IMG/VR virus record: IMGVR_UViG_3300035670_010029
Direction: 5' to 3' (one strand)
DNA length: 64,000 nt
Source of the DNA: a virus
The notes beneath the pieces were generated by a model. That model saw only the letters and a list, made by a program, of their open reading frames with translations. It did not search any database and was not told the DNA's origin. This document shows positions 4,567-54,427 of the stretch, one piece after another; the first letter of the stretch is position 1; the number at the start of each line of letters is the position of its first letter. The position numbers and the translations under genes are program-made.

Positions 4567-4571
4567 AATAT

Positions 4572-5443: not shown

Positions 5444-5445
5444 TA

Positions 5446-9291: not shown

Positions 9292-10424
9292 ACGCTTTGT
9301 TTATCGGACCATATAGACAAAATGATGGCTGGGGCGCCGCCACCAGAGATTACATAAGGTCTATAGCAACACAGACAAAAAATCTTTCTATTCGTCCAAT
9401 CTACTTAGCCAATAATTTGATAGAAAAGCTAGACGATGACTTGTTGTCATATGAAAACTCCATATACAAAACATATGATGTTGTTTTCCAAAAAACATTA
9501 CCTCATTGCTTGGTTCCGCAAAATATTACTACTAAGAATGTTGGCATATTCACCCTAGAAACCAACAATATATCCCACTCCAATAGCATACATCTGATCA
9601 ACAGAATGAGCGAAATTTGTGTTCCTTCTAACCAAGAAGCACACAGTCTTAAAATCTCTGGTATTAAAATTCCGATCAGAGTTATCTCCCAATCTCTAAA
9701 TACCGAAGCAATAAAAAACCATATATCCAATAACACCCAAAAGCCATTTCCTTTCGACATTATCACATCTAGATCGTTCAAATTTTATACAATTGGTGAA
9801 TATATAGAAAGAAAAAATTTATTAGATATTGTGTTAGCCTTTAATTTGGCTTTTGACATAAATGATAACGTTAGTTTAGTTATCAAAACCAATAAGCCAG
9901 GACTTAACCACCAGCAGTCATATCAATCTATTATGCAAGACATAGCTGACCTTAAAAGAAAGATGAACATCGGCTCCGTAAACAACAAAGAAGTAGTGAT
10001 TACACATAGGTTGTCAGACAACGATATGATGTCTCTACACGACTCATGTGACTGCTTCGTGTCTGCATCAAAAGGTGAGGCGTTTTGCAGACCTGCTGCG
10101 GAAGCCCTGTGTTTCGGTAATGTTCCTATGGTTACAGATCATACCGGAATGATAGACTTTATAAATAACCAAAACGGATTTATCATTAATAGTCATAAAA
10201 CGCCTGTGGTGACATCAGAAAGAACACTCTCTAATGATTTTGATATATATAATGCTCATGAGTACTGGTATCAGCCAAATATTTACTCTATGATAGAGAC
10301 CATGAAAAAAGCCTACCATATGTATCGTAAAGATCAAGATGCTTGGCAAGCTAAAAGACAAGCAGGAATATTATCCATAGAAAAGTTCTCTTACTCACAA
10401 ATAGGACAGAATATATGCATCTAA
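9288..10424 (+). CDS. GT-B (GT4-like) glycosyltransferase
   Basis: GWGAATR, IGEYIERKN, LVIKT, DCFVSASKGEAFCRPAAEALCFG. Confidence 0.85.
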   Translation: MNALFIGPYRQNDGWGAATRDYIRSIATQTKNLSIRPIYLANNLIEKLDDDLLSYENSIYKTYDVVFQKTLPHCLVPQNITTKNVGIFTLETNNISHSNSIHLINRMSEICVPSNQEAHSLKISGIKIPIRVISQSLNTEAIKNHISNNTQKPFPFDIITSRSFKFYTIGEYIERKNLLDIVLAFNLAFDINDNVSLVIKTNKPGLNHQQSYQSIMQDIADLKRKMNIGSVNNKEVVITHRLSDNDMMSLHDSCDCFVSASKGEAFCRPAAEALCFGNVPMVTDHTGMIDFINNQNGFIINSHKTPVVTSERTLSNDFDIYNAHEYWYQPNIYSMIETMKKAYHMYRKDQDAWQAKRQAGILSIEKFSYSQIGQNICI

Positions 10425-37915: not shown

Positions 37916-40900
37916 TTATTGTTTAGTTGGATCTGGAATACTACCTTCTGACTCCGCATTTAATCTACTGAATGCCGATTGTACTTCTCTTCTTATTAAA
38001 CCACTTAAAGGACCGTCCAATAATTCTTGCAGCGCTTGTGCTCCATTAACAACCACTTCTACCTTATGATTACCATTAACATTAATTTCTGGTGGTAAGT
38101 TTAGCTTGCTTAACTGAGTAATAAATTGATCAAATTTAGCTGTAAACTGGCCAAGACCATCTAATCCTCCAACACCATTTGCTTGTACTCCATTATTTAC
38201 ACCGCCACCAGCCACGATCTGTTGCATAATAGCGCCAAACTGAGTCATAACCTGATTAACGCCTGTTAATAGGGTTCCAAAAATTGTTAATTGTTTATTG
38301 ACATTTCCAGCATTGCTAGGATCAAATGCTGCTTGTGCTGCCTGTGATACTCTCTGCTGTGTCTGAGGAGATATTTGTGGCATAGCCGCTTGTGCCGGAG
38401 CTTGTCTTTGAGCTGCCACAGGAGCCGCACCAGCAACCAATTGTCTCATAGCTACTTGAGGAGAAATGCCTTGTTCACGAGATATCTCTAGTGCTTTACC
38501 TCTTTGATTTGCTATTTCGCGTGCTTTGGCCTGAGGAGATTTTGCTAATCGCTCTTTTAATACTTCAGAGCCTCTTTCTTCGGAACGCGAACGTATTGCG
38601 TCTTGTCTGGCTTGTTCAGCTTGTCTTTTTGCTGTCGCTGCTGCTATCCTCTCTGCTTTTATTTTCTCTCTTTCTGCTTTAAGTCTTTCGACTTTTTCTT
38701 CTTTGGTTTCTTTTGTGCCTTCAGACAAATACGAGACAGCACCACCTTTGTTATAGGCCCCACTATTAATCTTGTGTAACAGAGGAAGGTGTGACTGGGT
38801 AGCTTGTCGATTAACAACAAATTCACCAGGAGTAAGCATTGCGGGGATGGTGTCTGTACCTCTTGGTTGATACGGTACCAACATACCTTCGGATGCATAA
38901 ACTGTATCGGGTATGTCTCCTAATACTTGATCTGGTTTAGGTTTGGGCTTAGCTTTATTCTTTTTATCAAAACTGGCCAACCACTTACTACGCATGGAGT
39001 CATTCTTAGTGTTGTAGTAATTATACTCTCCAAGTTTACGTTGATAATAATTATATGCGCTCTTAAATTGCGACTCGATACCTTTTGCAGCAAAAATAGC
39101 TCGTGTACTTCTATCTCCTTCTTCTATGGTTCTGAGAGGACTGCCATCTCGATTAACAATTGATGGCAAACCACTAGCATCATTAAAAGTGTCATTTGTC
39201 GTAGTTTCAGGTATTGTTGCTGGGCTAGACGATTCAGAACCAGGCCAGGGCATACCTCCTTGGTCGGAATCTACTCCTAAATATTGACGAGGTTTTCCTC
39301 CTTCGCTTAAATAATTAACCAATCCACCAAACGACTTATAACTACCTCTACCTAATCCAGCATTATTTCTTGCATTTTGAGCTAGTTTCTTTTGTTCTAG
39401 TGTTTGAGCATTTAATAGCAATTTTTTGTTTTTTTCAACACTGCCAGCAACAATAGAGCCTCCATCTCTTTCATCAAATGCAGTAAATCGTCCGCTTTCA
39501 TTTTTTTCTACGAATTTATTGTCTTGGAAAGATAATGATTTTTCTTTGACATACAAAGCAGGAGTTTTGAACAGGTTTTTGATTGGTGGTTGTGGTGCGG
39601 ATCCGTTCTTTATTAAATTGTTTAACCATTCTTTATATGTAAGCTCATCATAATAGTTTGGTAATTCACCATCAGCAATCGGAAGCTCTTCTGGATTCAT
39701 TACGGGAGGAGCGCCCATTGCTATTTTTTGCATAGCAGCATCATTATTTGCTTGTTCTGGCTTGTTTATTATTGGATTATCTGGACTTGGAGGATTAATA
39801 TTGTCTGGTGTCTTCGATACTGGTTTGGTATTTTGATTAGCTAATTGAGTAGCGGCATATATTCCTCCCAAGGCTAAAGCTCCAACAATATATTTTTTTC
39901 TACCTCCTAATATATTTTTTGTTTTATTTCTAGTCCAATCGAACCAAGACCTATCCTCAAACTTTATACTAGGATCATCTATACCTTTGCTTAAGGCTCG
40001 TCTACCCTCTTTGGATAGCCCTTGTTCCGCATCTGCTAACGCTTTTGTTCTAGTTTGCTGCCAAACGGTGTCAGATTCCATATCTTTGGATATAATACCT
40101 TCAATAACGTCGTCATTGCGAGACACTTTCAAAGGAGGGCCTAAATCTACAGACCATCCTTGTTTCATAGCCTTGTCTGTAAACTCTTCTATGCCTGAGT
40201 CCTTATAAAGAATAGCTTTAAGAGCATCGCTATCAGACACACCACTACTAATAGCATCTTGATAAGCTTTTTGTGTAGCCGTATTGTTGCGAATAAAATT
40301 ATCAATAGAGTCAATTCCAAATTCTAGTTCTTTTTCAACATTATCTATATAAGCATTGATCCTATTTGACTGAGCATCTTGTACCATAGCCTTAAACTGA
40401 TTTAACCTGTCTTCTACTAATAATCTCTGTGCTTTAGGTAGTTTAATAATATCACTATTATCAGATGCTTTAGTGGCCAGAGAAGCAGAATCGGTTACAT
40501 CATCAGCTTTATTGGGAACGGAGACGGTTTGTGTGGCAGTTTTTGTCCCAGCATTTCTGTTTGGTCTTAATTGTTTAATAGCGTCACCAAAAGATGGAGC
40601 ATCTTCTAGAATTTTAGCTGTTTGAGGATTAACAGCAGCTTCAGCAAAAATATCCAAATTATCTATAACAAAACCGAGTTTATTCGCGCCCTCTCCCAAA
40701 TTATTTAACCAACTTTTGAATGTTGGCATAGCTTCGCCAGCAGCAATAATAGTCTTAGCTATACTCGGGGTAATATTTGTCCCCAAAGAAGATATTCCTT
40801 TAACAACATTACCGATCAATGGCAGTTTTTGTGCGCCGCTAACCATTGATCCAACATCAGATAATCTATCTACAACGCTTAATGCTTGTGCTCCTTTACC

Positions 40901-43900
40901 AGCTAGACTTGTTCCTGTGCTAAAACCCATACTAGACAAGGCTTGCGCTGCTTGAGAAGCAACAAAACCTACTGTTTGAGCACCTTCGGTAATAGCAGCA
41001 GCGCTTTCTCCCATGCCCTGTCTTACAGACTCTACTCTAGCCGCATCCCCTACCTGAAGAGCGGTTTGTTCACCTGTCTGAATTGGTCCACTTCCAGCTA
41101 AGGCTTGACCTAACTCTACTGTACTATAAGCTCCTTGTACTAATGCTTGTTCGCCAACCTGAGCAAATGCTTGTCCTGCAGCTTGTCCTGATTCGCTACC
41201 AAGCAAATACGACCCTCCCTGTACAGCGCGACCAGCCACAGAGATACCAGCACCAGCTACCACATTAGCAGCCCCGTAAGCTGCTCTACCAGTAGCCTCT
41301 CCCACTCCTCCTAGCCATCCTAGTCCTGCTATTAGCGGATTTTTACTTTGTATCCATAATTTATTTTGTGCCGTTCCGCCATCTGCTAAGTAATTAACAA
41401 TACCGCCAGAAGACAAAGTGTTACTATTAATAGCTTTTAATAAAGGTAGATTTTTTTGAGTTGCTGATCTATTGACTACAAATTCTCCTGGCGTTAACAT
41501 AGCAGGAACAGTATCTGTCCCTCGTGGTTGAAAATTAACTAAGTTTGCTCCATTCTGAGCATATATTATTCCACCCATAGCCCTATTAACTGGTTCGGCC
41601 ACTGCTCCTCTACTGGCAAACCATGATAAGCTAGGTAGCGCACCGAATGCATTAGCAAAACCAAAAAACATATGTGCTTGCATAGCATCGTCATAATATT
41701 TTTGTCCATCATTAGCAAAAGACGCCGCAAAATTACTCATTCTGGCAGCGTTATCCGGTTGCGCCATAGCATCAAAGAAATAATCTTGACCCACCCAATT
41801 ACCTTTGCCTCCATACCAATTCATGAGTCTATATAATCCTTCTCTGATGAAACCTAATGTTATTTGATCAAAATATGGCATACCATTAGGACCACGTAAA
41901 TTAAACAAATCATCTCCAAATTTTTGTATTAATCCTGATCTAACTTTTGTTCCATTAAATTCATTATATGGATTAAATAATACCTTTACTAAATCATTAA
42001 CCGTAGCATTTTCTGGAATGGCACCCGCTAGGTTTGTTGGTGTTAGTGTGCCATCTCTACCAACTACTTTAATTTGGGTTCCTTGCAATTGGTTGCCTAA
42101 TATATTTTTCCAATCAGGACTTAATTGTAAACCAGCTACTTTGCCGGCTCTTGCTGACATGCCAAAACTACGAAAGACTCCAGCAATCGGCGCTTTAGCA
42201 TCATAGAATTGTTTTAATAAAGCGGTGTCTCCTCCAGCAATAGCACCAAAAGCGTTAGCAGCACCGCTGATCATAGTCATAATATTATCTAGAGCATTAT
42301 ATGATTGGATACTATTTGCTCTGTTTTGCAATTGAGAAACATACGTTCCGGCTTGATTCAAAATAGAGGACATATATTGAGAGGCTCCTTTAGGATTACC
42401 TCCTAAAGCTAACCTAATAGCCTGCGGAGCGCCAGCATTAGACAACCATCCAGCAGAGACACCGGGAAGTCTTAATCCTCCAAATAAAGCCATAGAACCC
42501 CTAATTAGAGCTGCTGTAGCCTGTGGCAGATCCGCATCGGTTAATACAGAACCTTTGGTTATTTTAGACTGATCCACCTTACCAGCAGATAGTGACATTT
42601 CTTGTTGAAACTGTGCTAGCTTATCTAGTACAAACTCGCCTATATTCACAGATAATGGCTGCTGGCTTATATCGGTAAATACATCTGCACCTGATGAGAT
42701 ACTACCTAAATATTTAGTTAAAGACGTACCCTGACCAAACGTTAGATTAAGTTGTGATGCTACTTTAGCTGCTTGTTGTTCAGCGTTGGGGTCTTTATTA
42801 ACTCTCATCTTTATTAGGTCTTGGAAATCCTGAAGTAGTTTTGGATCATTAATACTAGAAGCATTAATAATATCATTAGGTCCATATTGTTTGGCAGTAA
42901 ACAGTCTTCTTTGGGACTTGTCTAGTGTGTTAAACAGCGTGCCCACTATGTTATTTGGTAATAGGGTGTCTATTGTTCTATTTGGATCAAATTTACCAGT
43001 AGTCGCATCATAAAATTGACCCGTATATTTCTCATATGCTATAGGAACATCTATGGAAGGATTTTTGCCATTAATGGGTATTGGTAATGTTAATTTAATG
43101 TTGTCAGATATTAGGCTGCTAGATACCACGCCCTTGGCATTCAGAGTATTTTTTTTCGCCTCGTCCATAAACGTTTGACCAAGATAATCTTCTATGTTGC
43201 CATTGATCATAACTGGAAATGACTTAGAAATACGATTTATTTCATCTGTTAATACGAATGGCTTACCTAAATTAAATTCTGGATCAAATTTTGCCGGTGG
43301 GGCTCCTACCAATCCAAACTTAACTCTATCTCTTCTTGCTCTTTCTATATTAGCTTGTACCGACTCTATAGCTGTTCTAAACGACGGTTCTAATGATGGT
43401 TGAGCCACAACAGCACTACTCGCGCCTTGAGTAATAAGCTCGTCTAGTGGAGACAATTCAGAGCCAGTTAAAGAAATATATTGTTGTGTATTATTAAATA
43501 ATGCAGATAGCTTGTCTCCTAGTGCTTGACCAGATCCGTCATCCACGTAACCCAACCTGCCTTGTAAAAATTCTAGTGTGTTTTTATATAGCTCATAGTT
43601 TGGTTTATGATTTTTTGTATTAGCTTCGTCTATTTTAAATCCTGGTAAAATATGCTGCTGTTTCGTCATTGGCTCACTTACAAAAGACGGGGTTTGTCCA
43701 TTGTGTGGTTCCCAGCTTTCCGAACTCCATTCTGTGTCAGCATATGGACTACCAGTAACAAAAGACGGTTTGTTAACGGACACCGCCATTGCCATTCCAG
43801 GAGCCCAGCCGGCCGGATTGTAAAATGCTCTTTTATAATACCAAACTTTAAAAGCTTGACTTTTTTGTATTTGATCGGAGCTGGCCCCTATATAGGGTTT

Positions 43901-46900
43901 ATCAAAAGACACCCCATAACTTTTATCTACTAATGTAGATTCCCACTTATTGGGAGTAGGATCTGGAAAATCTGCTGTGGTTGGTGGTTTATCTCTATAT
44001 AAAGATTTATCTAGTATGCTTTCTGGTTTTGGTCCGCCATCTATACCAAGTAGCATAGTTTTAACTTTGTCTTGATATTCTTTTTCTTGGGCTTGAAAAA
44101 TTTGTTTACCGGTAAACGCACCAAGCCCTAAATACAAACTATTGTTATCTTTAACTTTTGCTAAACCACCACGAATCCTAGACGAAGCTTGTGCTGCAGC
44201 GTCGTTCTTTGCGTAATCATACTGATCCCTGCCTTGCTTCACTATTGTTGGCGTTGCGCCAACTCTCACCGAACCCATTGACTTGTCTATAATATTATCA
44301 GCATTTAGATCAAAAGAGGATGTAGGCAGTGCATTAGAAGCACCAAAAGATAATGTGTAACTATTTGGCAGATCATATATATTACTAGAACCTTTTTGCC
44401 ATATTTCTGCTGCAGAGTCTGTTGGTTCAATAATTGGTTTTTCAGTCAACATGCCTTGTTGTTTGATATTGTCTGGCTTTCCCCAGTTTGTGATTAATCC
44501 TCCAGCGTTATAATATCCGACACGGCCACCCGATTGTAAGCTGTTATTATTAATTTGTTGTAGTAATGGCAGGTGTTTTTGTGTCGCTGATCGATTAATA
44601 ACAAACTCGCCAGGAGTTAACATCGCCGGTACGGTATCTGTTCCTCTGGGCTGAAAGTTAACCAACTGACCCTCCGCAGCATAAACTAAACCTCCAGTAG
44701 CTATGCCGGCAACTGGTGGTACCGCTCCAGCTCCTCCTACTGGTGGTTTTGGTTGTTGAGCAATAGATACGAGGGTATTGATGTTTCGTCCAATATCGGA
44801 TAGCTCTCTATTTTGAAATGTTAAAATAGTATTGGTCAAACCATCTATAATAGCTTTGCTGTTTTTGGACGCAATATCGTTTGCCAAATTCTGATCAAGC
44901 TGTCCTAGTAATCTAGTAGCCGCTGATTGTTCCGCTATGGCCTGATTATAATATTGTATAGCTGCGGCAGTCGCTGGATCTTGTTCGGGATTTCTTAACG
45001 AGTTTAAAATTTGTTGAAACATCGGAGAGACCCCCATCCCCGACTCTTGTAGCATAGTTTCTAATACGTTAGCTCTTGTATTGTTGGCTTGTTGATTATC
45101 TCCTAAAAATGGCAAAATATCCTGTAGTGCTCCTAATGTGTCTTTTCGCTCATTAGCAAAAGCTGTTTGTGCTGCTCTCATTGCTTCCATTGCAGAAGCA
45201 CCATTATTAATTGCATCTTGATAAGCTTTTTGGGCTCCAATACTATTTTGTATAGTATTTTGTTGTCCATTCATATTTCTTTGTAGTCTATACAAAGATT
45301 GGTTTAAAGACTCTAGTTCATCGGGAGTGCTAGTAACTACTTTCTCTAAGAAACTTATTCTGCCAGTTGCTTTTTGTTGAGCTTCTTGCATAGCATTCAT
45401 AGCAGCACTAGCTTTTTCAGTATTATTAGCCATCTCTTCTAAAGCTGCTCTGTTTTCTCTTAGAGAAATATTAGTGGCTTTAAGATCATTGTTAAATCTA
45501 ACAAAATCTTGAACACCAGCTGGGCCTTTCTCTGCCGACTGCTGAACAGACGACTGTTGAATTTCTCTGGTTCTATTGAGTTTAAGGACGGCATTGAAAA
45601 TATCCGCTGGATCCGTGATTCCTCCTGTTTGTCTACCAACAGAAGCATTTCTTTTAGCAAAAACATCTGCTACAGATATTGTTCGATTTAATGTTTTTGA
45701 TAACTCTAACTGAGAGTCGGCCGTAATGTCTATAGACTTTCTGGATCGTTCTCTAGCACTAATTTCTAAATCAATAATTTTATTCAAGTTATTAGCATAC
45801 TGATTAAGAATATTTTGATAATTTTGTAAGGCTTTGATAGCCACAGACTGAGCATCTTTAGCTGTCTCTATAACAGAATTTAATCCAGCCAATTTTTCTG
45901 ATAATTGAGCAAAATCCACTTTATCATCGCCGGATTTTCTCAGATCTACCAATGTACTACCGACTTCTTTAGCTAGTTTATCTGCTAATTCTGGAGGCAA
46001 GCCTAAACCCTTAAGCTCAGCTCTTATGTTTTTATCAACGGCCCTAGCAATAACTTCGTTGGAAGAATCTGGTCCTTGGTTTTTTAGTGTATCATTAATT
46101 GTAGACATAACTGTATTTTCTACAGTCTCGCCTAAATTCATTAGTTGTTGCATCTCTGGCTGTCTATTACCAAACAATGATCCGGCTGAGGATTGAGCTG
46201 CTGATACTCGTCCTGCTCCGTATGATCTTGGATTTTCAATAATATTCGCAGATGCTAGATCTATATTTCCTACTTTTGCCTGGCCCTGCAAAGCCGCTGT
46301 TGTTAGATCTATATTTTCTGACATAGACTTAAGAGAGAATGCTGTTGCATTAATGGCCTGTTCCATATTAGTAAACATTCTTTTTAAAGAACGCGTATAT
46401 ACAGAAACCATAGCTCCTAAGTTTTTCTGATCTTTTTCTCTCTGAGCAACAGCTGCTGCTTGCCTGGTCTTATTAGCTCCCTCTATAGTAATTATTTCTT
46501 CTATTAGCTCTTTTTTTCTCTTCTCAGTTAAACCAGTACTGAGTTCTATCTGTCTTATTTGCTTATTAAGAGCCGTGTCTGCATAAACCAAAGATCTGGC
46601 AAAATCATCAAATTCTGCACTGCCTAAAATATCTCCTACGTTTTCTCCAGATTTAATACGAGCTTGGATTAGCTGATTAATACCTTCTGCTATTGGTTGA
46701 AAAGATTGACTAGATTCTTGTGCTTGAGCACCGACCATTTTACCAGCTTTAGCCTCGTATGTGTCCGCTCCGCCAAACAATGTACGAAAATATTCTATTG
46801 TTCCTTCTTTTTCTAAAACCTGAGATCTTACTGCTGCTTGACGAGAAGCCCCATTGCCTTGTATCGAAGAAAATAGAACATCCAATCCATTAATCCAACC

Positions 46901-49900
46901 AGCACTAGCGGTATCTAGAGTTCGTGTTCTAAGATTATCTGCTGATCTAGAGGCATCAATTAAATTTGACTGTATTGACTGTCTTAGATTGACTTGTGTC
47001 AAGTCTTGATTCAGCTTATCGAATTTTTCTGATATACCATTTAAAGCTTGTTCTATTTTATTTTTGGATAATTCTATATAAAATTGTCTCACTCCGTTAT
47101 AAGCATCAAGAGCAACTTGCCCCAAAATAGCAACCACCTGCACTGCCTTAGCGCCTCTCAATAATCTGGATGCAAAGCCTGCAAATCTACTATTTGTGTT
47201 GCGTAGGTTTTGTGTGAAATTATCTAGTTCACCGATAGCTGCTTGGGTATATGAAAAAGCTTGCGAACCTCCTCTAATACCACCAGAGATACCTGCTTCA
47301 ATAGCACTAGATTTAGCATTAATAGAATCGGCGATAATATTTCCAACGGTGATGACACCAAAAGATAGGGCTAAACTAGCCTGTCTATCAAAATTTCTCT
47401 GCTCATCTGGACCTCTTTCTCCTCTAGAAGCAGCCGCTTGTTCTATAGCTGTTCTGCGAGCCCTAATTTCTTCGTTTATGGCTCTAACTTGCTCTTGTGC
47501 TTGGTCTTGTGTAATTCTTCCGGCTCTTAATTCGGCATCAATAGTAGCTCTGCGTGTCTGGATATATCTTTGGTCCATTTGCTCTAGTGTTCGCGCATCT
47601 CTAGTAAGATTTTGTAATACTCGTGCTAGGTCATCTCCGGTAGCATTTAACGTACTAAGATCTATAGAGGTTCCTAATCCACCTCCCGTGGCTATGTCTT
47701 CATATGCAGTACGACTTCGTACTGCGGCTCCTGCTCTTAATTCTGCTTGTACTTCTTCTTCTGTTCTGGGCGATCCGCTAGTTCCTGGAGTAGTACGTAA
47801 AACATTTTCTTCTGCTTGTCTAAGAGCTTCTATTCTACCTTCTACAGCATCTAATGCGTCTTGAATAGCTTGTCCAGTAATATTTCCTAATCTTTGTTGT
47901 ATATCTAATTCTGCTTGTGCTGCTCTATTAGCGTTATTTATGGCTTGTTGTAGGTCATACAATGTTTCCGCACTTGCTCCAGCCGCACGAGCCATGTTAA
48001 AATCAGCTTCTGCAGCTCTTCTAGCTTCGGCAGCAGTGGCCTGATAGCTTCGATTTAATAATCTGGCAGATTCTGATCCACTGACACCTAGTTGTGTTAA
48101 TACGTCTGCTAGTTGAGTTAATGCTGTGGTAGCTAAAGTAGTAGCTCCTATAGTGTCTGCATTAATAACTTCTGGTCTAGCTGATGGCCCTCTGGATCTA
48201 CCGCCCAAAAAGAATCTTTCTACTCCAACAGCTCCGCCCCTATTTAAACCCAAAGCTTTTGTCGCTTTTTCTCTTATTACAAAACTACCAACTGGCAAAT
48301 TAGCTGGTATACTATCACTGGTACCTGTACCCGGACCCTTAAATACGCTAATACCGCCATCAGCAAATCGCCCCATACCATTACGATCAGCCTGATTCAT
48401 TTTATTTAATTTGCCATAACCAATTCTTTTAGCAAGCTTGGGTGGTACATAAGCTTCACCATTGCTTACTAGAGCCGGAACCGTGCCTCCGTCTGCTAAT
48501 CCTATAGCTTGTTCTTTGTAGTATCTATCAAATTCTCCACGGGCTTTTTCAAACGCACTCCCATTAAGTGTTCTTTTAATTTCTGTAGGAATATTATCTG
48601 GTAAGCCAAAGAATTGGGCAGCTCGTCCCAATCCTCCTGGAAAATCTATAGCCCTATTAGACTCTAAAGTTTCTATAGGAGGAAGATTAGCTCCTAAAAT
48701 AGCTAAAGCTTTTTCAATAACGGCACCCTCAATATTTCCTTGTCCCATCAGCTCATCTAATTCTGGTTTGGCTTGCGGCTCAGTATATAAGAAGCCAGAC
48801 TTTTTGCTTTTTTGAACAGCTCGTATATTATCTAAGCTATCATCAATTAATTTTTCTGTTTGTGCTAAATTTTGTGCTTTAGCTCTTGGTACTTTAACGC
48901 CTTCTCCTCCAACACCAGTAATGTCCGAGGCTTGGTAAGGTAATCCAAAGCTTTGTAAAGATTGAGCTAATAAGTCTACAGTACTAGCGGGTCTAGCGGT
49001 AAGTATTCGTGTGTTTTTAATAAACTCTGGATCAGCATCTATTAATGTTTTAAGTTTAGCACCCAAACGTGTAAGTCTACCCCCTTTTAGATATTCTTCA
49101 ACAACGGTTCTGTCTGAATATCTGGGAATGTCTGGCTTTCCTTCTTCGTTAAGAATATCGGTACCAGAAACTAAAGTTTCATCAAAATCAAAAACTAATT
49201 TTTCTTTACCTCCAAAAATTTTGGTATATTGTACATTTTCTGCAAAGTTTCTAGCAGCTAGTGCTGTTTCTCTGCTCATTTGTTGTGCGGCTGGTAGGTA
49301 TTCTTTGTCAAAACCTTTTATAGTGGCATAGATAGTTTTACTACTTTCTGGCAGGACCCATTCGTTGGTGTCACTGTAACCCATTGGCAATAAGCCGGCT
49401 ATTGCTACTTGTGTTAGACTAGCTATTCTTTTAGCTTCAGCCGCATCACTCTTGCCCGATACGAATAATGCTCTATTGACATAGTCTTTAGCTATTTCTA
49501 TCCCTTTATTTGCTTTAATATTATTAGCATTTAAAACAGATCGTGTTCGACTATCTCCGGCACCAATACCTAATATGGTTCGAACTCCGGCAGGTCCACC
49601 CAAACCCCTTAGTTGTTCTAGCAATGTTTCTTGAATACTTTGACCTTTGGTTTGAGCCAAAGCAGACACCCTGTCTCTGATTCTTGGTGCCTCTTTAACA
49701 GCTCCTGCTTCCGCAAATTTTTGAATCATACCGCCTAAAGAAAATCTTGGTTTGCCCTTTCGTTTTTTAATATCTTTTGCCCATTCGTACATCGAACCAA
49801 AACTATCGCCTTCTATGTCCTCAACAGCATCTTCGCTTAGATACTTGTCCATGTATGCTTTAGTCAATACCATACCATCAATAACCGTAGGCTTACCATC

Positions 49901-52900
49901 TTTGGTATAGCCCATGTTCGAACCACCAGCGTCGATCCAATGTAATCCTCGTTCAGCTAATTTACCCTGCAATAGCTCTGCATCTTTCATGCCTTTTTCT
50001 GTATCAGAGATTCTTACTTTGTCTTGTATTGCGGCTGTTAATTTACCAAAAGTCTTAACTTTTCTATATCCAGAAACATGCTCCATCCCTTCGGGAAGCT
50101 GATAATTACCAATCTCTTTAATTTGTTTTTTACGGAAGCCTACATCCTCAGCTATTTGCTGTATTCCAAATCCCGTGCGAGAAATTTTTAACACTTCGTT
50201 ACCTATATCAAAAGACACATTTTCTCCACCGGCTCCCAGTACTTTTGCTGACGAAACACCATATTCATTTTCTATTTGGGAAAGATACTTAGGTAATCCT
50301 TTAACGGCTAAAATTTCTGGCGTCACTTCTCCAAAAAAAGTTTTATTCGTAGTAGAATATGTCTGTAATGCTGCTAATAATTTAGAGACTGAAGAAACCT
50401 TGTCTGTGGATTTTTTAGCTTTTCCACCCACTTTATATTCCTGTCTTTTTATACCAGTACTACCCAATAATTCACTAAGCGTACTGTCTAAAACACTTTG
50501 TAGTTTACTATCAAGAACAGGAGCTTTTTGCACTAAAGTTGTTAAAAACTCTTCTTTTCCATTATCTTCTGTTCTGGTTATATGAGCTTGTTCGAAACCA
50601 GCCGATAATAATGTTTGATTCACACCGGGATTGATCGGTCTGTATTCTCTGGCTTTTTTAGCATCATCAGAAGCCTTGATATATGAAGCTAGTTCTTTTT
50701 CCATTTCTGGATTGCGCTTTTCTGGATTATCTCTTAGTCTAATGTTTTGTAGCTGAGCACTTTCCAAAAGACTTTGTTTATATTTGCGTCCATACACCAC
50801 GTCTGCACTAGTATATCCTCCGCCATTACCAGAAGATAAAGCATCAAAAGCATCTGCCAAACCATCATTGTCCGTATTGAATAGAAAATCAACTCTTTCC
50901 CTATATTTGGAAAAACTTTCTGCTGAACGAGCCCTTAAACCACTAAACAATTGGTGTGTTAATTCGTGATACAATACGTCTTGTCCTGGTTTATCAAAAG
51001 CTGTACCTAACGATATACTGCCTCGTCCGGTAGCTGACATTGTTTGCTTCTTAGACTCAACTGCGGCTTCTATTGCTCTGCGTTCTTTTCCTTTGATATC
51101 CGAAATTTTCTTTTGTAAAGTTTTTATTTCATCAAAAACGCTGACAAAAGCTTCTCTGTCGTATGAAAAAGACCCATCATCAAAAGTTTCAATAGGGGTT
51201 TTTAGAATTTTATTTTGTAATTTCTTTTTTTCTTCTACCAACTTCTCATAACCAAATAAGTCTTGTTTATCTTTGTCTGTGTATCCAAAAACGCTTAGGT
51301 CCCAACCTTCAGAGCCACGACTACCTAACGGAGAATCATTAAATAGTCCTCCTCCTATCACTTTTCTACCTATACTACCAGCGTTACCAAAATCTATCTG
51401 TGCCGGCAATGCAACGCTCAAATCTTCTTGTGGCAAACCTATAAATTTGGCAAAATCGCCTATACTTTTTAATAAAGAATCTCGTTTAACCTTACCTTTA
51501 AAAGAAGCCAAAAACGCCGCACGATCAAAAGGCTCAGTCATTCTGGACCCAACAGCTTGGTCGTCTATAGATATGCGTTCATCTGTAGGGACATTACTTG
51601 CTAGTTGTTTCCATTCGGCTGCTTGTTGTTCTTTTATTATTTGTTTAGCATACGCATTGGTTATGCGGCGTGGAAATTTTGTTTCTCCTGTGCCGAAAGA
51701 TTCCTGTGTTTGTTTAACTCCACCAGGTGATCCTGTCATAAATTTTTGAATGAATCCACCAACAAATTTTTCGTTAACTACCTGTTGTTCTGGATTCTGT
51801 GTTCTTTTCTTTTGCAAGAAGTTGAGGACTTCGTCAAAAGACCCACTATAAATGACCTCAGATGCCCCTTTGTCTCCGTGCTCAAACACATCATACCATG
51901 TTCGTTTAGCATTAGCGCTGTCATAAAATGATTTGTTTTCAGCCCATGTATATTGTGATTTGCCGCCTTCAGCAAAAGCTTTAATTTGACCACCTTTGAT
52001 AAAACCTGGTGTTTTCTGTTGTTGTTGCTTATTAATAAAATCATAAAACTGTTTTTTGGTATCGCCAGCCCAGTAATAGTCCAGGGTTCCTATATTAACG
52101 TCGTCGATTTTAGGCGCAGGAAGGTTTTCTTTAAAATATCTATTAACGCTTTTTTTCTCTATACGATATCTTAATAATTTGCTAATCAAATCAGCATCAT
52201 CTGTTTTTGTAGTTCTAAATTTGACTTCACCTATTCTGCTTATAGCATTGTTCTTAAGTCGTTTAAGTATATCAACAGGATAGTTGGTTTTATCGCTGGC
52301 TTTCTCCCATTGGCCAGACAGTTTTTCTATGAGCAATTGTTCATATGCTAAACCCCAACGACCTTCTGCACTTTGTAAACGACTAATAGAATCTGATGTT
52401 TGTTGTCCATAAGATTGTTTAATTTGTTTTTGTTCTGATCGATTTTTACCAGATAGCTCTCTCAATATATCTCGGTTCTTTTGACTAATATCTATACCGG
52501 CATAGCTCTTATAGTGTCCTGAACCTTGTGCTGCTTGATTTTCTGCTGTATTCCATATTTTTAGAAAATCTTGATCCTCTAATTTAACTGTTTTCGGTTT
52601 TATTTTGATAGAGACTTTATCGTCTGCTTCTAAATTGGTTGAACCTATGGCTTTAGCAATAGCTGCTGCGCCTGATCTGTTTAATAGATCGGAGACTAAT
52701 ACAGGTCCTCCGTCAGCATATCTGTTCATCCTAACCAAATTTCCCCTACCATACTTATTAACAGCTCGTTTATTGACGACAAATTCTCCAGGAGTCAACA
52801 TAGCTGGTACACTGTCTGCGTTACCAGATCCTGGTACTATTCCTCCTCTGGCAAATCCGTATATACGACCTCCGTCTTGTGCTCTTCTAGTTCCTCTAAA

Positions 52901-54427
52901 ACCCCCACCAAAACCACCAGCAAATTGTGTTAAAGCACTAACCCCCCTAAAAGCTGCCATAATACCGATTAAAGGTAAAACACCTTTGGTAGCATCAGCA
53001 ATTTTGATTAGAGCGCTTGCAAGATCAAGACCCAATCTAACCATTGTTTTAAAGCCATCACTATCACCTACGCTTCTCACTAAAGCTGTAAATTCTTCTC
53101 TAACTTTTTGTATTTGAACAGCTAACGCTAGTTGACCTTTGGCCGCGTCTGTAGCTAATGATCCTTGTCCTTGTTGAGCTACCTTAAGAGCATCTTGAGC
53201 AGTGGCGAATTGTTGGATAAGAGGAAGTACTTTACCAATCTGACGGAAACCACCAAGCTCTTCAACTATTTGAGAGAACTTTAAGTCTCTAGGATCCAAT
53301 CTGCCTAATCCTTCGGCCAATCTTTGAACAGCAACATAAGGCCCAACGAATTTACCCTCTAGATCAGTTAATTGAACACCATACTCTTTAAGAGCTTCTA
53401 TAGTGTCGCCTCTTTGTATTCTGGTAAATATTGTTCTCAAACCAGTAGCAATAGTTTCTGCACTTTCGCGAGTAGTAGCTCTAATACTAGTAAACACAGC
53501 CAAAAATTCGTTTAAGGCATCGGTGCCTGAACTAACTCCTCTACTAGCAGAAGCAAACACGCCACCAGTACGCTGTATAGCAGCAATAAGGTCGCTAGCT
53601 TCTACTGCAAACCCAGCCGCTACAGCATTGATACTACCTAAAGCCCCTTCTAGTTGATTGGCACTAATACCAAACTGTCTCATCAAAGCAATAGAACCTT
53701 CTACTGTTTGATTAAGATTATCAAAAGATGGAGCTAATGCACTTTTAGCTAAGGCTTCTAGTGCTTTTCTGGTATCTCCCGCAGTAAAACCTGCCTGAGC
53801 TAGCGTTACCGATACTTGAGCCAAATCTTCTGACGCAACACCCATAGATGTAGATAATCTGGTAATCTCAGATGTCATACTACTCAAACTGGCTTTGCTT
53901 TCATTTGTTACCTGACTCAAACGAGTAATCTGACGATCAAATTCTATATATTGTTTTATACCGGCACTTAACGCATTACTAAATCCGTATATAACAGATG
54001 TCACAGCACTAAAGGCCGCAAATCTTCTTACGGCTAACCCAGCTTGTCTTCCGAAGTCTTCAAACTCGGTACGCGTTCTTGATACGGCCGCACTAGCGTT
54101 ATTAGCACTAGAAGCCAACCTTACCATGGGAGCTTGTACTGTTTGCGGTAAATTAACATTACCAACCGATCTCATCGCAGCTGCCAAATTAGTAAAAGCT
54201 TGCGCTGCGGAGGTTGTTGACGATGTGGTTGCAGCTAGCGTGGTATTAAGAGTCCCAAGACTAGTATTAACTTGTCTGATTGATCCTAAAGTTGTTCTAT
54301 TTATATTCAGATTAACATTAGCATTAATAGAACCAAGTTGTCTACGAATATTATTTACTATGGGACGAATATTGGTCGGCCCCCTAAGATTAATTTCTGC
54401 GGTTAAGCTGAATCCTCTTGCTGCCAT
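37916..54427 (-). CDS. giant tape measure protein (5503 aa) with embedded enzymatic domains
   Basis: N-terminal TP901-type TMP core (FDRQITRLSQVT...LAQAG...GTGLRTI-like ATGLRTIFTRI); long Ala/Gln helical regions; six PAMLTPGEFV-type modules; located after tube and chaperone genes; AGGAG SD. Confidence 0.92.
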   Translation of the reverse strand: MAARGFSLTAEINLRGPTNIRPIVNNIRRQLGSINANVNLNINRTTLGSIRQVNTSLGTLNTTLAATTSSTTSAAQAFTNLAAAMRSVGNVNLPQTVQAPMVRLASSANNASAAVSRTRTEFEDFGRQAGLAVRRFAAFSAVTSVIYGFSNALSAGIKQYIEFDRQITRLSQVTNESKASLSSMTSEITRLSTSMGVASEDLAQVSVTLAQAGFTAGDTRKALEALAKSALAPSFDNLNQTVEGSIALMRQFGISANQLEGALGSINAVAAGFAVEASDLIAAIQRTGGVFASASRGVSSGTDALNEFLAVFTSIRATTRESAETIATGLRTIFTRIQRGDTIEALKEYGVQLTDLEGKFVGPYVAVQRLAEGLGRLDPRDLKFSQIVEELGGFRQIGKVLPLIQQFATAQDALKVAQQGQGSLATDAAKGQLALAVQIQKVREEFTALVRSVGDSDGFKTMVRLGLDLASALIKIADATKGVLPLIGIMAAFRGVSALTQFAGGFGGGFRGTRRAQDGGRIYGFARGGIVPGSGNADSVPAMLTPGEFVVNKRAVNKYGRGNLVRMNRYADGGPVLVSDLLNRSGAAAIAKAIGSTNLEADDKVSIKIKPKTVKLEDQDFLKIWNTAENQAAQGSGHYKSYAGIDISQKNRDILRELSGKNRSEQKQIKQSYGQQTSDSISRLQSAEGRWGLAYEQLLIEKLSGQWEKASDKTNYPVDILKRLKNNAISRIGEVKFRTTKTDDADLISKLLRYRIEKKSVNRYFKENLPAPKIDDVNIGTLDYYWAGDTKKQFYDFINKQQQQKTPGFIKGGQIKAFAEGGKSQYTWAENKSFYDSANAKRTWYDVFEHGDKGASEVIYSGSFDEVLNFLQKKRTQNPEQQVVNEKFVGGFIQKFMTGSPGGVKQTQESFGTGETKFPRRITNAYAKQIIKEQQAAEWKQLASNVPTDERISIDDQAVGSRMTEPFDRAAFLASFKGKVKRDSLLKSIGDFAKFIGLPQEDLSVALPAQIDFGNAGSIGRKVIGGGLFNDSPLGSRGSEGWDLSVFGYTDKDKQDLFGYEKLVEEKKKLQNKILKTPIETFDDGSFSYDREAFVSVFDEIKTLQKKISDIKGKERRAIEAAVESKKQTMSATGRGSISLGTAFDKPGQDVLYHELTHQLFSGLRARSAESFSKYRERVDFLFNTDNDGLADAFDALSSGNGGGYTSADVVYGRKYKQSLLESAQLQNIRLRDNPEKRNPEMEKELASYIKASDDAKKAREYRPINPGVNQTLLSAGFEQAHITRTEDNGKEEFLTTLVQKAPVLDSKLQSVLDSTLSELLGSTGIKRQEYKVGGKAKKSTDKVSSVSKLLAALQTYSTTNKTFFGEVTPEILAVKGLPKYLSQIENEYGVSSAKVLGAGGENVSFDIGNEVLKISRTGFGIQQIAEDVGFRKKQIKEIGNYQLPEGMEHVSGYRKVKTFGKLTAAIQDKVRISDTEKGMKDAELLQGKLAERGLHWIDAGGSNMGYTKDGKPTVIDGMVLTKAYMDKYLSEDAVEDIEGDSFGSMYEWAKDIKKRKGKPRFSLGGMIQKFAEAGAVKEAPRIRDRVSALAQTKGQSIQETLLEQLRGLGGPAGVRTILGIGAGDSRTRSVLNANNIKANKGIEIAKDYVNRALFVSGKSDAAEAKRIASLTQVAIAGLLPMGYSDTNEWVLPESSKTIYATIKGFDKEYLPAAQQMSRETALAARNFAENVQYTKIFGGKEKLVFDFDETLVSGTDILNEEGKPDIPRYSDRTVVEEYLKGGRLTRLGAKLKTLIDADPEFIKNTRILTARPASTVDLLAQSLQSFGLPYQASDITGVGGEGVKVPRAKAQNLAQTEKLIDDSLDNIRAVQKSKKSGFLYTEPQAKPELDELMGQGNIEGAVIEKALAILGANLPPIETLESNRAIDFPGGLGRAAQFFGLPDNIPTEIKRTLNGSAFEKARGEFDRYYKEQAIGLADGGTVPALVSNGEAYVPPKLAKRIGYGKLNKMNQADRNGMGRFADGGISVFKGPGTGTSDSIPANLPVGSFVIREKATKALGLNRGGAVGVERFFLGGRSRGPSARPEVINADTIGATTLATTALTQLADVLTQLGVSGSESARLLNRSYQATAAEARRAAEADFNMARAAGASAETLYDLQQAINNANRAAQAELDIQQRLGNITGQAIQDALDAVEGRIEALRQAEENVLRTTPGTSGSPRTEEEVQAELRAGAAVRSRTAYEDIATGGGLGTSIDLSTLNATGDDLARVLQNLTRDARTLEQMDQRYIQTRRATIDAELRAGRITQDQAQEQVRAINEEIRARRTAIEQAAASRGERGPDEQRNFDRQASLALSFGVITVGNIIADSINAKSSAIEAGISGGIRGGSQAFSYTQAAIGELDNFTQNLRNTNSRFAGFASRLLRGAKAVQVVAILGQVALDAYNGVRQFYIELSKNKIEQALNGISEKFDKLNQDLTQVNLRQSIQSNLIDASRSADNLRTRTLDTASAGWINGLDVLFSSIQGNGASRQAAVRSQVLEKEGTIEYFRTLFGGADTYEAKAGKMVGAQAQESSQSFQPIAEGINQLIQARIKSGENVGDILGSAEFDDFARSLVYADTALNKQIRQIELSTGLTEKRKKELIEEIITIEGANKTRQAAAVAQREKDQKNLGAMVSVYTRSLKRMFTNMEQAINATAFSLKSMSENIDLTTAALQGQAKVGNIDLASANIIENPRSYGAGRVSAAQSSAGSLFGNRQPEMQQLMNLGETVENTVMSTINDTLKNQGPDSSNEVIARAVDKNIRAELKGLGLPPELADKLAKEVGSTLVDLRKSGDDKVDFAQLSEKLAGLNSVIETAKDAQSVAIKALQNYQNILNQYANNLNKIIDLEISARERSRKSIDITADSQLELSKTLNRTISVADVFAKRNASVGRQTGGITDPADIFNAVLKLNRTREIQQSSVQQSAEKGPAGVQDFVRFNNDLKATNISLRENRAALEEMANNTEKASAAMNAMQEAQQKATGRISFLEKVVTSTPDELESLNQSLYRLQRNMNGQQNTIQNSIGAQKAYQDAINNGASAMEAMRAAQTAFANERKDTLGALQDILPFLGDNQQANNTRANVLETMLQESGMGVSPMFQQILNSLRNPEQDPATAAAIQYYNQAIAEQSAATRLLGQLDQNLANDIASKNSKAIIDGLTNTILTFQNRELSDIGRNINTLVSIAQQPKPPVGGAGAVPPVAGIATGGLVYAAEGQLVNFQPRGTDTVPAMLTPGEFVINRSATQKHLPLLQQINNNSLQSGGRVGYYNAGGLITNWGKPDNIKQQGMLTEKPIIEPTDSAAEIWQKGSSNIYDLPNSYTLSFGASNALPTSSFDLNADNIIDKSMGSVRVGATPTIVKQGRDQYDYAKNDAAAQASSRIRGGLAKVKDNNSLYLGLGAFTGKQIFQAQEKEYQDKVKTMLLGIDGGPKPESILDKSLYRDKPPTTADFPDPTPNKWESTLVDKSYGVSFDKPYIGASSDQIQKSQAFKVWYYKRAFYNPAGWAPGMAMAVSVNKPSFVTGSPYADTEWSSESWEPHNGQTPSFVSEPMTKQQHILPGFKIDEANTKNHKPNYELYKNTLEFLQGRLGYVDDGSGQALGDKLSALFNNTQQYISLTGSELSPLDELITQGASSAVVAQPSLEPSFRTAIESVQANIERARRDRVKFGLVGAPPAKFDPEFNLGKPFVLTDEINRISKSFPVMINGNIEDYLGQTFMDEAKKNTLNAKGVVSSSLISDNIKLTLPIPINGKNPSIDVPIAYEKYTGQFYDATTGKFDPNRTIDTLLPNNIVGTLFNTLDKSQRRLFTAKQYGPNDIINASSINDPKLLQDFQDLIKMRVNKDPNAEQQAAKVASQLNLTFGQGTSLTKYLGSISSGADVFTDISQQPLSVNIGEFVLDKLAQFQQEMSLSAGKVDQSKITKGSVLTDADLPQATAALIRGSMALFGGLRLPGVSAGWLSNAGAPQAIRLALGGNPKGASQYMSSILNQAGTYVSQLQNRANSIQSYNALDNIMTMISGAANAFGAIAGGDTALLKQFYDAKAPIAGVFRSFGMSARAGKVAGLQLSPDWKNILGNQLQGTQIKVVGRDGTLTPTNLAGAIPENATVNDLVKVLFNPYNEFNGTKVRSGLIQKFGDDLFNLRGPNGMPYFDQITLGFIREGLYRLMNWYGGKGNWVGQDYFFDAMAQPDNAARMSNFAASFANDGQKYYDDAMQAHMFFGFANAFGALPSLSWFASRGAVAEPVNRAMGGIIYAQNGANLVNFQPRGTDTVPAMLTPGEFVVNRSATQKNLPLLKAINSNTLSSGGIVNYLADGGTAQNKLWIQSKNPLIAGLGWLGGVGEATGRAAYGAANVVAGAGISVAGRAVQGGSYLLGSESGQAAGQAFAQVGEQALVQGAYSTVELGQALAGSGPIQTGEQTALQVGDAARVESVRQGMGESAAAITEGAQTVGFVASQAAQALSSMGFSTGTSLAGKGAQALSVVDRLSDVGSMVSGAQKLPLIGNVVKGISSLGTNITPSIAKTIIAAGEAMPTFKSWLNNLGEGANKLGFVIDNLDIFAEAAVNPQTAKILEDAPSFGDAIKQLRPNRNAGTKTATQTVSVPNKADDVTDSASLATKASDNSDIIKLPKAQRLLVEDRLNQFKAMVQDAQSNRINAYIDNVEKELEFGIDSIDNFIRNNTATQKAYQDAISSGVSDSDALKAILYKDSGIEEFTDKAMKQGWSVDLGPPLKVSRNDDVIEGIISKDMESDTVWQQTRTKALADAEQGLSKEGRRALSKGIDDPSIKFEDRSWFDWTRNKTKNILGGRKKYIVGALALGGIYAATQLANQNTKPVSKTPDNINPPSPDNPIINKPEQANNDAAMQKIAMGAPPVMNPEELPIADGELPNYYDELTYKEWLNNLIKNGSAPQPPIKNLFKTPALYVKEKSLSFQDNKFVEKNESGRFTAFDERDGGSIVAGSVEKNKKLLLNAQTLEQKKLAQNARNNAGLGRGSYKSFGGLVNYLSEGGKPRQYLGVDSDQGGMPWPGSESSSPATIPETTTNDTFNDASGLPSIVNRDGSPLRTIEEGDRSTRAIFAAKGIESQFKSAYNYYQRKLGEYNYYNTKNDSMRSKWLASFDKKNKAKPKPKPDQVLGDIPDTVYASEGMLVPYQPRGTDTIPAMLTPGEFVVNRQATQSHLPLLHKINSGAYNKGGAVSYLSEGTKETKEEKVERLKAEREKIKAERIAAATAKRQAEQARQDAIRSRSEERGSEVLKERLAKSPQAKAREIANQRGKALEISREQGISPQVAMRQLVAGAAPVAAQRQAPAQAAMPQISPQTQQRVSQAAQAAFDPSNAGNVNKQLTIFGTLLTGVNQVMTQFGAIMQQIVAGGGVNNGVQANGVGGLDGLGQFTAKFDQFITQLSKLNLPPEINVNGNHKVEVVVNGAQALQELLDGPLSGLIRREVQSAFSRLNAESEGSIPDPTKQ
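38718..52885 (-). repeat. six dispersed GG..(GTD)xxPAMLTPGEFV modules in the TMP
   Basis: Copies at about 52750-52885, 48441-48502 (PALVSNGEAY), 48263-48370 (GTSDSIPANLPVGSFV), 44549-44707, 41375-41585 and 38718-38902. The last three share QPRGTDTxPAMLTPGEFVxNRxATQxxLPLLxxIN. Confidence 0.9.

Follow-up and report, generated by a model that had tools for sequence, protein, structure and literature searches.

Double-glycine joints separate exchangeable enzyme-like cassettes in a giant phage tape measure protein

The viral DNA analyzed here is a 64,000-nucleotide window of IMG/VR record IMGVR_UViG_3300035670_010029. On its minus strand, positions 37916-54427 form one uninterrupted open reading frame (ORF) for a protein of 5,503 amino acids (aa), designated P0001. 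An initial annotation, made from the letters alone, had described this protein as a tape measure protein (TMP) in which double-glycine motifs bracket a series of enzyme cargoes. The carrier assignment was borne out by profile searches. PF10145 (PhageMin_Tail) matched aa 187-391 with an E value of 1.3e-23 (84 bits, against a cut-off of 33), and 14 PHROG TMP families matched aa 1-510. By these matches and the GG-GEFV-GG module described below, P0001 is classified as a phage tail TMP of the PhageMin_Tail type. The record of P0001 lists two contigs, the longer of 161 kb, and the protein belongs to an uncultured large siphophage (contig of about 160 kb) of subsurface and freshwater metagenomes.

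All the motifs and tandem pairs listed in the initial annotation were found at their places in P0001. The pairs lie at aa 519/528, 812/821, 890/899, 1565/1574, 3300/3309, 4341/4350, 5034/5043, and 5228/5237, and the single motifs are YADGG (570-574), YKVGG (1331-1335), LADGG (1977-1981), and FADGG (2021-2025). Their frequency was compared with that in 5,000 composition-preserving shuffles of P0001. The motif [FYL]xxGG occurred 20 times against 6.6 ± 2.6 expected, and none of the shuffles reached 20. A GG followed by a second GG at +9 was observed 5 times (0.35 expected; 0 of 5,000 shuffles reached 5), and the full pair pattern GG-x-phi-x-x-phi-x-x-[GA]G was observed 6 times (0.04 expected), a count that no shuffle attained. 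Plain GG was in slight excess, with 60 occurrences against 45 expected. Because this plain count was barely raised, the signal lies in the patterned motif and not in glycine richness. The consensus of the joint, phi-x-x-G-G-phi-phi-x-x-phi-x-x-G-G, has a period of nine residues. Joints were located by regular expressions and by the ends of BLAST blocks; an iterated hidden Markov model of the joint lost 3 of the 8 pairs of P0001.

The short joints are partial copies of both edges of a larger module of about 75 aa, GG-GEFV-GG, with the consensus GG-IYA..G.LI.FQP.GTDTVPAMLTPGEFVVNR.ATQ.NLPLL..IN......GG.V.YL..GG. P0001 contains three full modules (aa 3236-3315, 4276-4356, and 5161-5243), one shorter module (516-575), and one degenerate double module (1977-2077). 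The initial annotation had pointed to a similar FxxGG...GEFV...YAxGG region close to the C-terminal end of lambda gpH, and this relation was recovered by alignment, with residues 710-784 of gpH (PDB 8iyk_H) aligned to aa 504-576 of P0001. The module also matched gp16 of the mycobacteriophage Douge (8zdo_S; E value, 1.4e-8; two copies) and residues 1001-1068 of JBD30 gp46 (8rk3_A). By tblastn it was found in 140 cultured-phage records, and the annotated matches shown all lie in tape measure genes, except for one labeled as an endolysin and one as a hypothetical protein. In published TMP structures only the last 30 to 40 residues are seen, and the module is not resolved. Within the P0001 gene, the module copies are 71-80% identical in DNA. 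Since this identity is just 71-80%, the modules are preserved by selection on the peptide and do not stem from recent duplication. The positions of all units are given in Table 1.

Table 1. Units of the tape measure gene and their positions in the window
Feature	P0001 residues	Window position	Strand	Remark
Whole TMP gene	1-5503	37916..54427	-	5,503 aa; PF10145/PHROG TMP; 98 full-length homologues of 3,000-7,900 aa
TMP core: PhageMin_Tail (187-391), then hydrophobic Gly-rich stretch (482-512)	1-512	52892..54427	-	kept in 87-92 of 98 homologues
Module 1: GG pair, then DSVPAMLTPGEFVVN, then YADGG	516-575	52703..52882	-	same module as lambda gpH 710-784
Cassette A: possible restriction-endonuclease-fold (toxin-like) unit	575-811	51995..52705	-	
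Joint FIKGG-QIKA-FAEGG	809-822	51962..52003	-	
Cassette B: mobile mini-domain of ~65 aa	822-889	51761..51964	-	in 5 other TMPs
Joint KFVGG-FIQK-FMTGSPGG	887-903	51719..51769	-	
Cassette C: helical domain with invariant YHExxHQ	900-1333	50429..51730	-	70 of 185 proteins, end to end
Single joint YKVGG	1331-1335	50423..50437	-	
Cassette D: minimal protein-kinase-like domain	1335-1564	49736..50425	-	10 relatives only
Joint FSLGG-MIQK-FAEAG	1562-1575	49703..49744	-	379-aa ADP-ribosyltransferase cassette here in P0002
Cassette E: N-terminal helical/beta part, cap-less HAD core (segment 166-309), helical C-terminal part	1575-1979	48491..49705	-	
Module 2: two degenerate GG-GEFV-type copies, ending in FFLGG	1977-2077	48197..48499	-	kept in 84-92 of 98 homologues
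Long segment	2078-3235	44723..48196	-	most relatives keep part from ~aa 2450; weak PHROG TMP match
Module 3	3236-3315	44483..44722	-	motif and module search
Variable segment	3316-4275	41603..44482	-	in 10-38 of 98 homologues; no Pfam or PHROG match
Module 4	4276-4356	41360..41602	-	motif and module search
Variable segment	4357-5029	39341..41359	-	in 2-29 of 98 homologues
Joint KSFGG-LVNY-LSEGG	5030-5046	39290..39340	-	
Module 5	5161-5243	38699..38947	-	motif and module search
C-terminal region	5244-5503	37919..38698	-	homologous to C termini of P0005 and P0021

A word-indexed search and an exhaustive HMMER search yielded 184 relatives, of which 158 are at least 2,500 aa long, with a maximum of 7,872 aa; the largest contig among them measures 248 kb. 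Across the family, 562 module copies were counted in 161 proteins, with 1 to 9 copies per protein. For the conservation profile of P0001, 98 full-length homologues of 3,000-7,900 aa were used, and cassettes were counted in 185 proteins. When aa 800-1985 were compared exhaustively by phmmer with 1.84 billion representatives, only giant TMPs and their fragments were retrieved, with no cellular or stand-alone relatives, and a tblastn search of aa 570-2080 against 50,697 phage records gave no match. Direct searches of the P0001 cassettes in Pfam, PHROG, and PDB sequences returned nothing significant.

The coverage of P0001 by the 98 homologues shifts stepwise at aa ~575, ~810-900, ~1335, ~1565, ~1980-2075, ~3310, and ~4350. 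Likewise, of the 987 ends of long BLAST blocks, 47% are no more than 10 aa away from a joint GG, compared with 7% for positions drawn at random, and the profile envelopes of cassettes C, D, and E span the inter-joint segments end to end. GG flanks accompany cassette C on the N side in 45 of 55 copies and on the C side in 53 of 55. For cassette D, 4 of 5 copies have the N-side flank and all 5 a C-side GG pair; for cassette E, the figures are 14 of 44 and 44 of 44. Cassette B was detected in its five other TMPs at differing positions (aa 1332-1805), and in six of six TMPs it has a GG-bearing joint or a module start on both sides. Full-length copies of cassette A occur only in P0040 and P0156, where they are joint flanked. 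The proposal that the motifs border successive units between about 52700 and 48500 is therefore upheld by the stepwise conservation and the profile envelopes, together with the compact structure models presented below.

Pairwise comparisons revealed a mosaic pattern. In P0003, aa 888-1339 (the HExxH cassette) are 90% identical to P0001, against 59% in the N terminus and 46% in the HAD cassette. P0011 is 91% identical over aa 3-574 and 38-53% identical in the later cassettes, whereas P0002 is 89-93% identical over aa 1325-2077 and 62% identical in the N terminus. In P0004 and P0005, the order of the cassettes is permuted. At the DNA level, colinearity with the P0011 contig (L004; 78% identity) starts about 1.5 kb upstream of the gene and ends at codon ~571-574, that is, at the YADGG that closes module 1.

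The clearest case of gain or loss was found at the kinase/HAD border, which reads ...PRFSLGG-MIQKFAEAG-AVKEAPRIRDR... in the window. In P0002, the same border reads ...PRFSLGG-VISQFAEGG-, followed by 379 aa and then -LNQGG-MIQRFREAG-AVEKTPRIRDR.... The additional 379 aa, between the kinase-like and HAD cassettes, contain an ADP-ribosyltransferase (PF03496; E value, 4e-6; 26.7 bits against a cut-off of 23.4). Because P0002 has a joint on each side and the window has one hybrid joint, a whole cassette is thus either there or missing between two joints. By jackhmmer, stretches related to this ADP-ribosyltransferase-containing cassette are present in 71 of the 185 proteins (10 of them near full length), and none is present in the TMP of the window. 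The P0002 cassette opens with a start that recurs after many joints in the relatives, ...GG-K-V-x-R-N-L-G-Y-I-D-(F/Y)-D-V-I-x-(D/N)-P-A-N. In all, 702 stretches of 120 aa or longer in the relatives have no equivalent in P0001. They form 234 clusters, including 163 singletons, and a Pfam search of 91 representative stretches recognized only ADPrib_exo_Tox (3 members) and one weak HIGH_NTase1_ass.

Thus, exchange, insertion, deletion, and permutation of cassettes break at the joints, and recombination there is supported by the observed sequences. The initial annotation had named modular exchange at GG borders with conserved flanks among the checks of its proposal, and such exchange is what the relatives display. 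The diversity of cassettes extends further: among P0005, P0007, P0048, P0079, and P0083, some giant relatives carry EF-hand calcium-binding domains (PF13202, PF00036, and PF13405), and others carry PF03983, PF28597, or PF16581-like stretches.

Among the five cassettes between module 1 and module 2, cassette E was the best defined, and it occurs in 140 of the 185 family members. The AlphaFold model of aa 1575-1979 is compact (pLDDT, 92). In a Foldseek search, it matched HAD phosphatases (AphA, phosphoserine phosphatase, and others) at a probability of 1.00. With VIA, 42 chains were retrieved at Z scores of 8-11.3, nearly all of them HADs. The best match of the HAD core was the T4 Pnkp 3'-phosphatase (Z score, 11.3; root mean square deviation [rmsd], 3.2 Å; 123 of 142 residues aligned), followed by T4 PNK and the Pnkp1 RNA-repair enzyme (Z score, 10.4-10.5) and then by about 40 other HADs (Z score, 8-10). 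Across 61 sequences, the motifs DxDxT (D173, D175, and T177), T-A-R (T236-A237-R238), K (K276), and DD (D288-D289) are fully or almost fully conserved. The HAD unit proposed in the initial annotation is thus confirmed, at the level of the modeled fold and four motifs, as a cap-less HAD core. Judged by its nearest structural neighbors, this core is possibly a polynucleotide 3'-phosphatase. Both it and the T4 Pnkp 3'-phosphatase are cap-less HADs with DxDxT; however, their sequences are only 12% identical, and other HADs score just about 1.3 Z lower. The neighboring kinase-like cassette also differs from Pnkp, whose kinase has a P-loop, in having protein-kinase-like motifs. Behind the HAD core, a second nuclease-like part had been suggested. 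Here D354 and K377 are invariant, but this C-terminal part is modeled as mostly helical with one short strand rather than the usual multi-stranded nuclease core, so the nuclease reading of this tail is not supported.

Cassette D contains invariant elements in the order expected of a protein-kinase-like fold: a glycine loop, a lysine (VLKI; beta3), the catalytic D-x4-N, and (I/L)DG with its DFG-like Asp. Residues G66, K80, D165, N170, and D183 do not vary among 12 sequences with identities as low as 28%. The profile of the cassette matched the N-lobe of APH(2'') (E value, 0.017) and the catalytic loop of YopO (E value, 0.8), both weakly. In a language-model search of the Atlas, a cluster with PF18762 (Kinase-PolyVal) was ranked 23rd. 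No Pfam kinase matched, and the profile of the cassette D alignment found no stand-alone kinase-like relatives among proteins of 103-406 aa. The kinase label of the initial annotation is therefore kept in the form of a kinase-like domain, an assignment based on the invariant catalytic motifs, accompanied by weak profile matches.

For cassette C, the AlphaFold model of aa 900-1333 is also compact (pLDDT, 91), with the HExxH motif within helix 250-268. Y254, H255, E256, H259, and Q260 (segment numbering) are invariant in 54 sequences. The cassette had been called a zincin. The motif on its helix fits this name, but fold searches in four libraries (BFVD, the ESM Atlas, and the PDB, the last with both Foldseek and VIA wide) produced helical-hairpin noise and neither a zincin nor any other fold match; anthrax lethal factor was paired at a Z score of 7.2 with an rmsd of 14 Å. 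Cassette C is thus a new-looking helical domain with a metalloprotease-type motif. In the models of cassettes C and E, disorder is confined to the 7 N-terminal residues by the joint, and in the final ten-residue block the pLDDT falls to 71 in one and 60 in the other.

The N-terminal unit, cassette A, had been described as nuclease-like. It does form a discrete cassette, and a feature search of the ESM Atlas placed it near the Tox-REase-3, -5, -7, and -9 families (0.85-0.88). These language-model matches are only a lead to a toxin-like unit of the restriction endonuclease (REase) fold. Cassettes A and E showed no mutual similarity.

TMP length is known to set tail length, and this family spans 3,000-7,900 aa. 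The cassettes could accordingly be inert filler that tunes the length of the tail, with enzyme-like motifs as relics. However, DxDxT/K/DD, the kinase K/D/N/D set, and HExxH are invariant over 12-61 copies at 26-60% identity, which indicates selection for activity, and compact globular models make poor rulers compared with coiled coils. Such a spacer role is thus very unlikely. Instead, because the catalytic residues are invariant, we infer that the cassettes are active enzymes.

Taken together, these data make it likely that the giant TMP is built of exchangeable enzyme-like cassettes, parted by joints, which are delivered through the tail lumen ahead of the DNA. The core (aa 1-512) and the first module would be followed by an array of a candidate REase-fold unit, the 65-aa mini-domain, the HExxH domain, the kinase-like domain, and the Pnkp-like HAD. 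The joint would serve as an in-frame neutral seam in every member, such that crossovers within it between coinfecting relatives would yield functional chimeras. If recombinants within this shared in-frame joint are viable, the TMP family can be regarded as a platform for cargo shuffling. As part of the TMP, the cassettes would be carried within the tail lumen and would reach the cell shortly before the DNA. A TMP exits the tail ahead of the DNA with its C terminus leading; because the head-proximal third of the protein contains the array, the array would come through at the end, directly before the genome. In the cytoplasm, possible targets would be the 3'-phosphate ends of nucleic acids and, for phosphorylation, proteins or small molecules, with ADP-ribosylation added in the relatives. 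Kinase and ADP-ribosyltransferase chemistry needs ATP and NAD+, both of which are cytoplasmic. For this reason, action in the cytoplasm is favored over envelope penetration.

Several points weigh against this interpretation. Of the borders of the novel stretches in the relatives, just 24% of the left ones and 16% of the right ones have a strict GG pair within 30 aa (random positions, 5%), and thus the full pair is not used at every border. An accumulation of block ends at joints is partly expected for any conserved inter-domain linker, and such ends mark the breaks of viable recombinants, not recombination promoted by the joint. Only the HAD has an assignment at the fold level; the HExxH domain lacks a structural match to zincins, cassette D lacks both a significant Pfam match and stand-alone relatives, and the identity of cassette A is just a lead. 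The presence of the cassettes in the virion and their arrival in the cytoplasm are predicted from the sequence. In addition, folded domains of 25-48 kDa, if set side by side in three or six copies, would be too large for a lumen of about 3-4 nm, and the cargo must therefore be staggered or unfolded. Overall, the interpretation of the cassettes as enzyme cargo is partly supported.

The joints may have a purely structural function. Ordinary TMPs without cargo universally contain the module, and for this reason its primary role predates the cargo. The GG motifs and modules could then merely pack or dock the long TMP against the tube wall, a chaperone, or sister chains, while the cassettes remain tethered and act at the envelope, where they would assist penetration like muralytic TMP domains and not serve as effectors in the cytoplasm. 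Several TMPs indeed bear hydrolases that attack peptidoglycan in the periplasm, and modules also bracket long non-enzymatic segments. However, the kinase-like and ADP-ribosyltransferase cassettes need cytoplasmic ATP/NAD+, the HAD core is structurally closest to polynucleotide 3'-phosphatases, and Pfam and PHROG found no muralytic family in P0001. We consider it unlikely that the joints are structural only.

A further question is whether the chain is cut. In a true polyprotein, the joints or module starts would be protease sites, cleaved either while the tail matures or once the TMP has been ejected, and the enzymes would then function as separate proteins. The protease could be phage encoded, a host enzyme, or the HExxH cassette itself. 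Such cleavage would add to the delivery of cassettes through the lumen and would not exclude it. Two TMPs with known cuts offer some encouragement. Lambda gpH is cut in a glycine-rich region at about residues 690-710, and its module has FATGG at 733-737. T5 pb2 is cut after R1127, three residues ahead of a similar xEGG, at VPR|AEGGMMYPG...HGTEVVTPM, which frees an enzymatic C-terminal piece; hhalign placed this stretch of T5 on ATGGLVY...RGTDTVPAM of the module, with AEGGMMY on ATGGLVY, but the alignment was weak (E value, 0.022 for a single comparison; probability, 2%). The joint is also kept at the protein level, and zincin-like peptidases have been proposed as processors of phage polyvalent proteins (PMC5512222). 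However, the HExxH cassette is present in 70 of the 185 members, while joints occur in nearly all. Being found in under half of the members, it is not a universal joint protease. Among the neighboring tail genes, Pfam and PHROG detected no protease family, neither a gpK-like JAB nor any other among those downstream, whose products match almost nothing. A 14-residue motif with two-fold periodicity is, moreover, more elaborate than the usual cleavage sites. Cleavage at the joints is thus a tentative possibility.

In a broader form of this idea, the phi-x-x-GG joint would be a general recognition element for the processing of siphophage TMPs, multiplied here into a polyprotein that releases customizable takeover or anti-defense enzymes into the cytoplasm ahead of the DNA. 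If true, this would account for both the cut of lambda gpH (near FATGG) and that of T5 pb2 (VPR|AEGG), and the cargo would comprise a Pnkp-like 3'-phosphatase, a kinase, and, in relatives, ADP-ribosyltransferases. At present, this generalization is doubtful.

The delivery of exchangeable cassettes by a TMP has partial precedents. Effectors delivered with the virion are known from phage heads, such as T4 Alt, P1 Dar, and the MuF-fused polyvalent proteins. Polyvalent proteins, as described by Iyer, Burroughs, Anand, de Souza, and Aravind in 2017 (PMC5512222), are the nearest concept in terms of function; they combine 2-15 unrelated effector-type domains in phages and conjugative elements. In them, one virion-associated chain joins many unrelated conflict enzymes (ADP-ribosyltransferases, kinases, peptidases, nucleases, and phosphoesterases), a zincin-like peptidase is proposed as a processor, and domain combinations differ strongly between relatives; with its enzyme-like cassettes, P0001 resembles this organization. 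With five discrete cassettes, of which one is a HAD and two have invariant catalytic motifs, P0001 has the multi-domain character of the group. However, polyvalent proteins are packaged in the head or transferred by conjugation, fused to MuF, portal, ArdC, or relaxase, whereas the carrier of P0001 is a TMP and a fixed joint motif parts its units. No PolyVal-associated family matched the P0001 cassettes in Pfam at an E value of ≤0.1. A TMP carrier is absent from the polyvalent surveys: the phrase "tape measure" occurs 0 times in PMC5512222 and in one follow-up, and once in a further follow-up, in a general remark on siphophage DNA delivery that names no TMP carrier.

The processed TMPs lambda gpH (cut to gpH* and gpHC) and T5 pb2 (cut to pb2* and pb2C) are a further known system. 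Cleavage takes place in or next to the glycine-rich module region; lambda gpH shares the GG-GEFV-GG module, and cleavage of T5 pb2 frees an enzymatic piece. Each contains a single module with a single cut and no more than one small enzymatic motif, in contrast to the 5-6 modules, about 6 short joints, and five cassettes of P0001. Rpf-like motifs are carried by mycobacteriophage TMPs. Cell-wall hydrolase motifs are present in the TMPs of several phages (PMC12617516), and T5 pb2 has a metallopeptidase motif. In these proteins, too, an enzyme rides within the TMP and is ejected at infection, but they have single muralytic motifs directed at peptidoglycan, whereas P0001 has an array of cytoplasm-directed appearance that is exchanged in units. 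Finally, Sle1 of Streptomyces is a TMP-related cargo effector of a contractile injection system (CIS) (PMC13277306). Like the cargo of extracellular CIS, it has a TMP-like carrier with an exchangeable C-terminal functional domain in the tube lumen; it differs in belonging to a bacterial CIS and not a phage, in having one functional domain per protein, and in that no grammar of GG joints is reported for it. In targeted literature searching, which was of incomplete coverage and gives absence of evidence only, no publication was found that describes effector arrays carried by TMPs or the GG joint.

These results suggest that, in long-tailed phages, the lumen of the tail is a second, modular compartment for effector delivery. 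The grammar of the GG joints should allow hundreds of unknown cargo domains to be excised from metagenomic TMPs, and the 234 clusters of stretches are candidate anti-defense or takeover enzymes. In addition, the joint is a testable candidate for the processing sites of lambda gpH and T5 pb2, and the TMP suggests itself as a natural scaffold with which phage tails might be loaded with foreign proteins.

Outside the array, the C-terminal region of P0001 (aa 5244-5503) is presumably the tail-tip docking end, by analogy with published TMP structures. The gene order around the TMP is kept in relatives, with ORFs of about 100 and 290 aa upstream and an ORF of 1,539 aa downstream, and none of these neighbors matched a named family in Pfam or PHROG. 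Downstream of the TMP, positions 16999-37904 on the minus strand contain five very large ORFs (1,539, 520, 506, 1,733, and 2,653 aa), essentially without Pfam or PHROG matches apart from a weak beta-roll match in the first. These are presumably tail tip or fiber proteins of an uncharacterized type. At 60208-62589 on the minus strand, a structural protein of 793 aa unites an fn3 domain, an Mtd_N domain (N-terminal domain of the major tropism determinant), and a YHYH domain, a combination also found upstream of the TMP in the relative L001; it is a candidate receptor-binding protein.

An assembly chimera was rejected as a source of the stretch. The stretch recurs in three runs of one subsurface-metagenome study, with 85-88% of the sampled words present, and its architecture is shared by more than 150 homologues. 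The G+C content is 0.37-0.40 over 38001-54000, compared with 0.31-0.36 in most other parts of the window; the AT skew is strongly negative. The raised G+C content probably reflects the Gly/Ala-rich composition of the protein (A, 11%; G, 9%) and not a foreign origin.

The remainder of the window is plainly of phage type. On the plus strand, the DNA polymerase (phrog_405) is split into two ORFs at 2695-4566 and 5446-7089, which cover profile positions 42-616 and 622-1077, respectively. A 229-aa ORF (4754-5443) for an RNase_T/DnaQ-like exonuclease sits between them, and the window also encodes a dNMP kinase and a PD-(D/E)XK nuclease. Beside these replication genes, two adjacent glycosyltransferase genes (phrog_2170) at 7624-10424 on the plus strand may serve to modify DNA or the cell surface.

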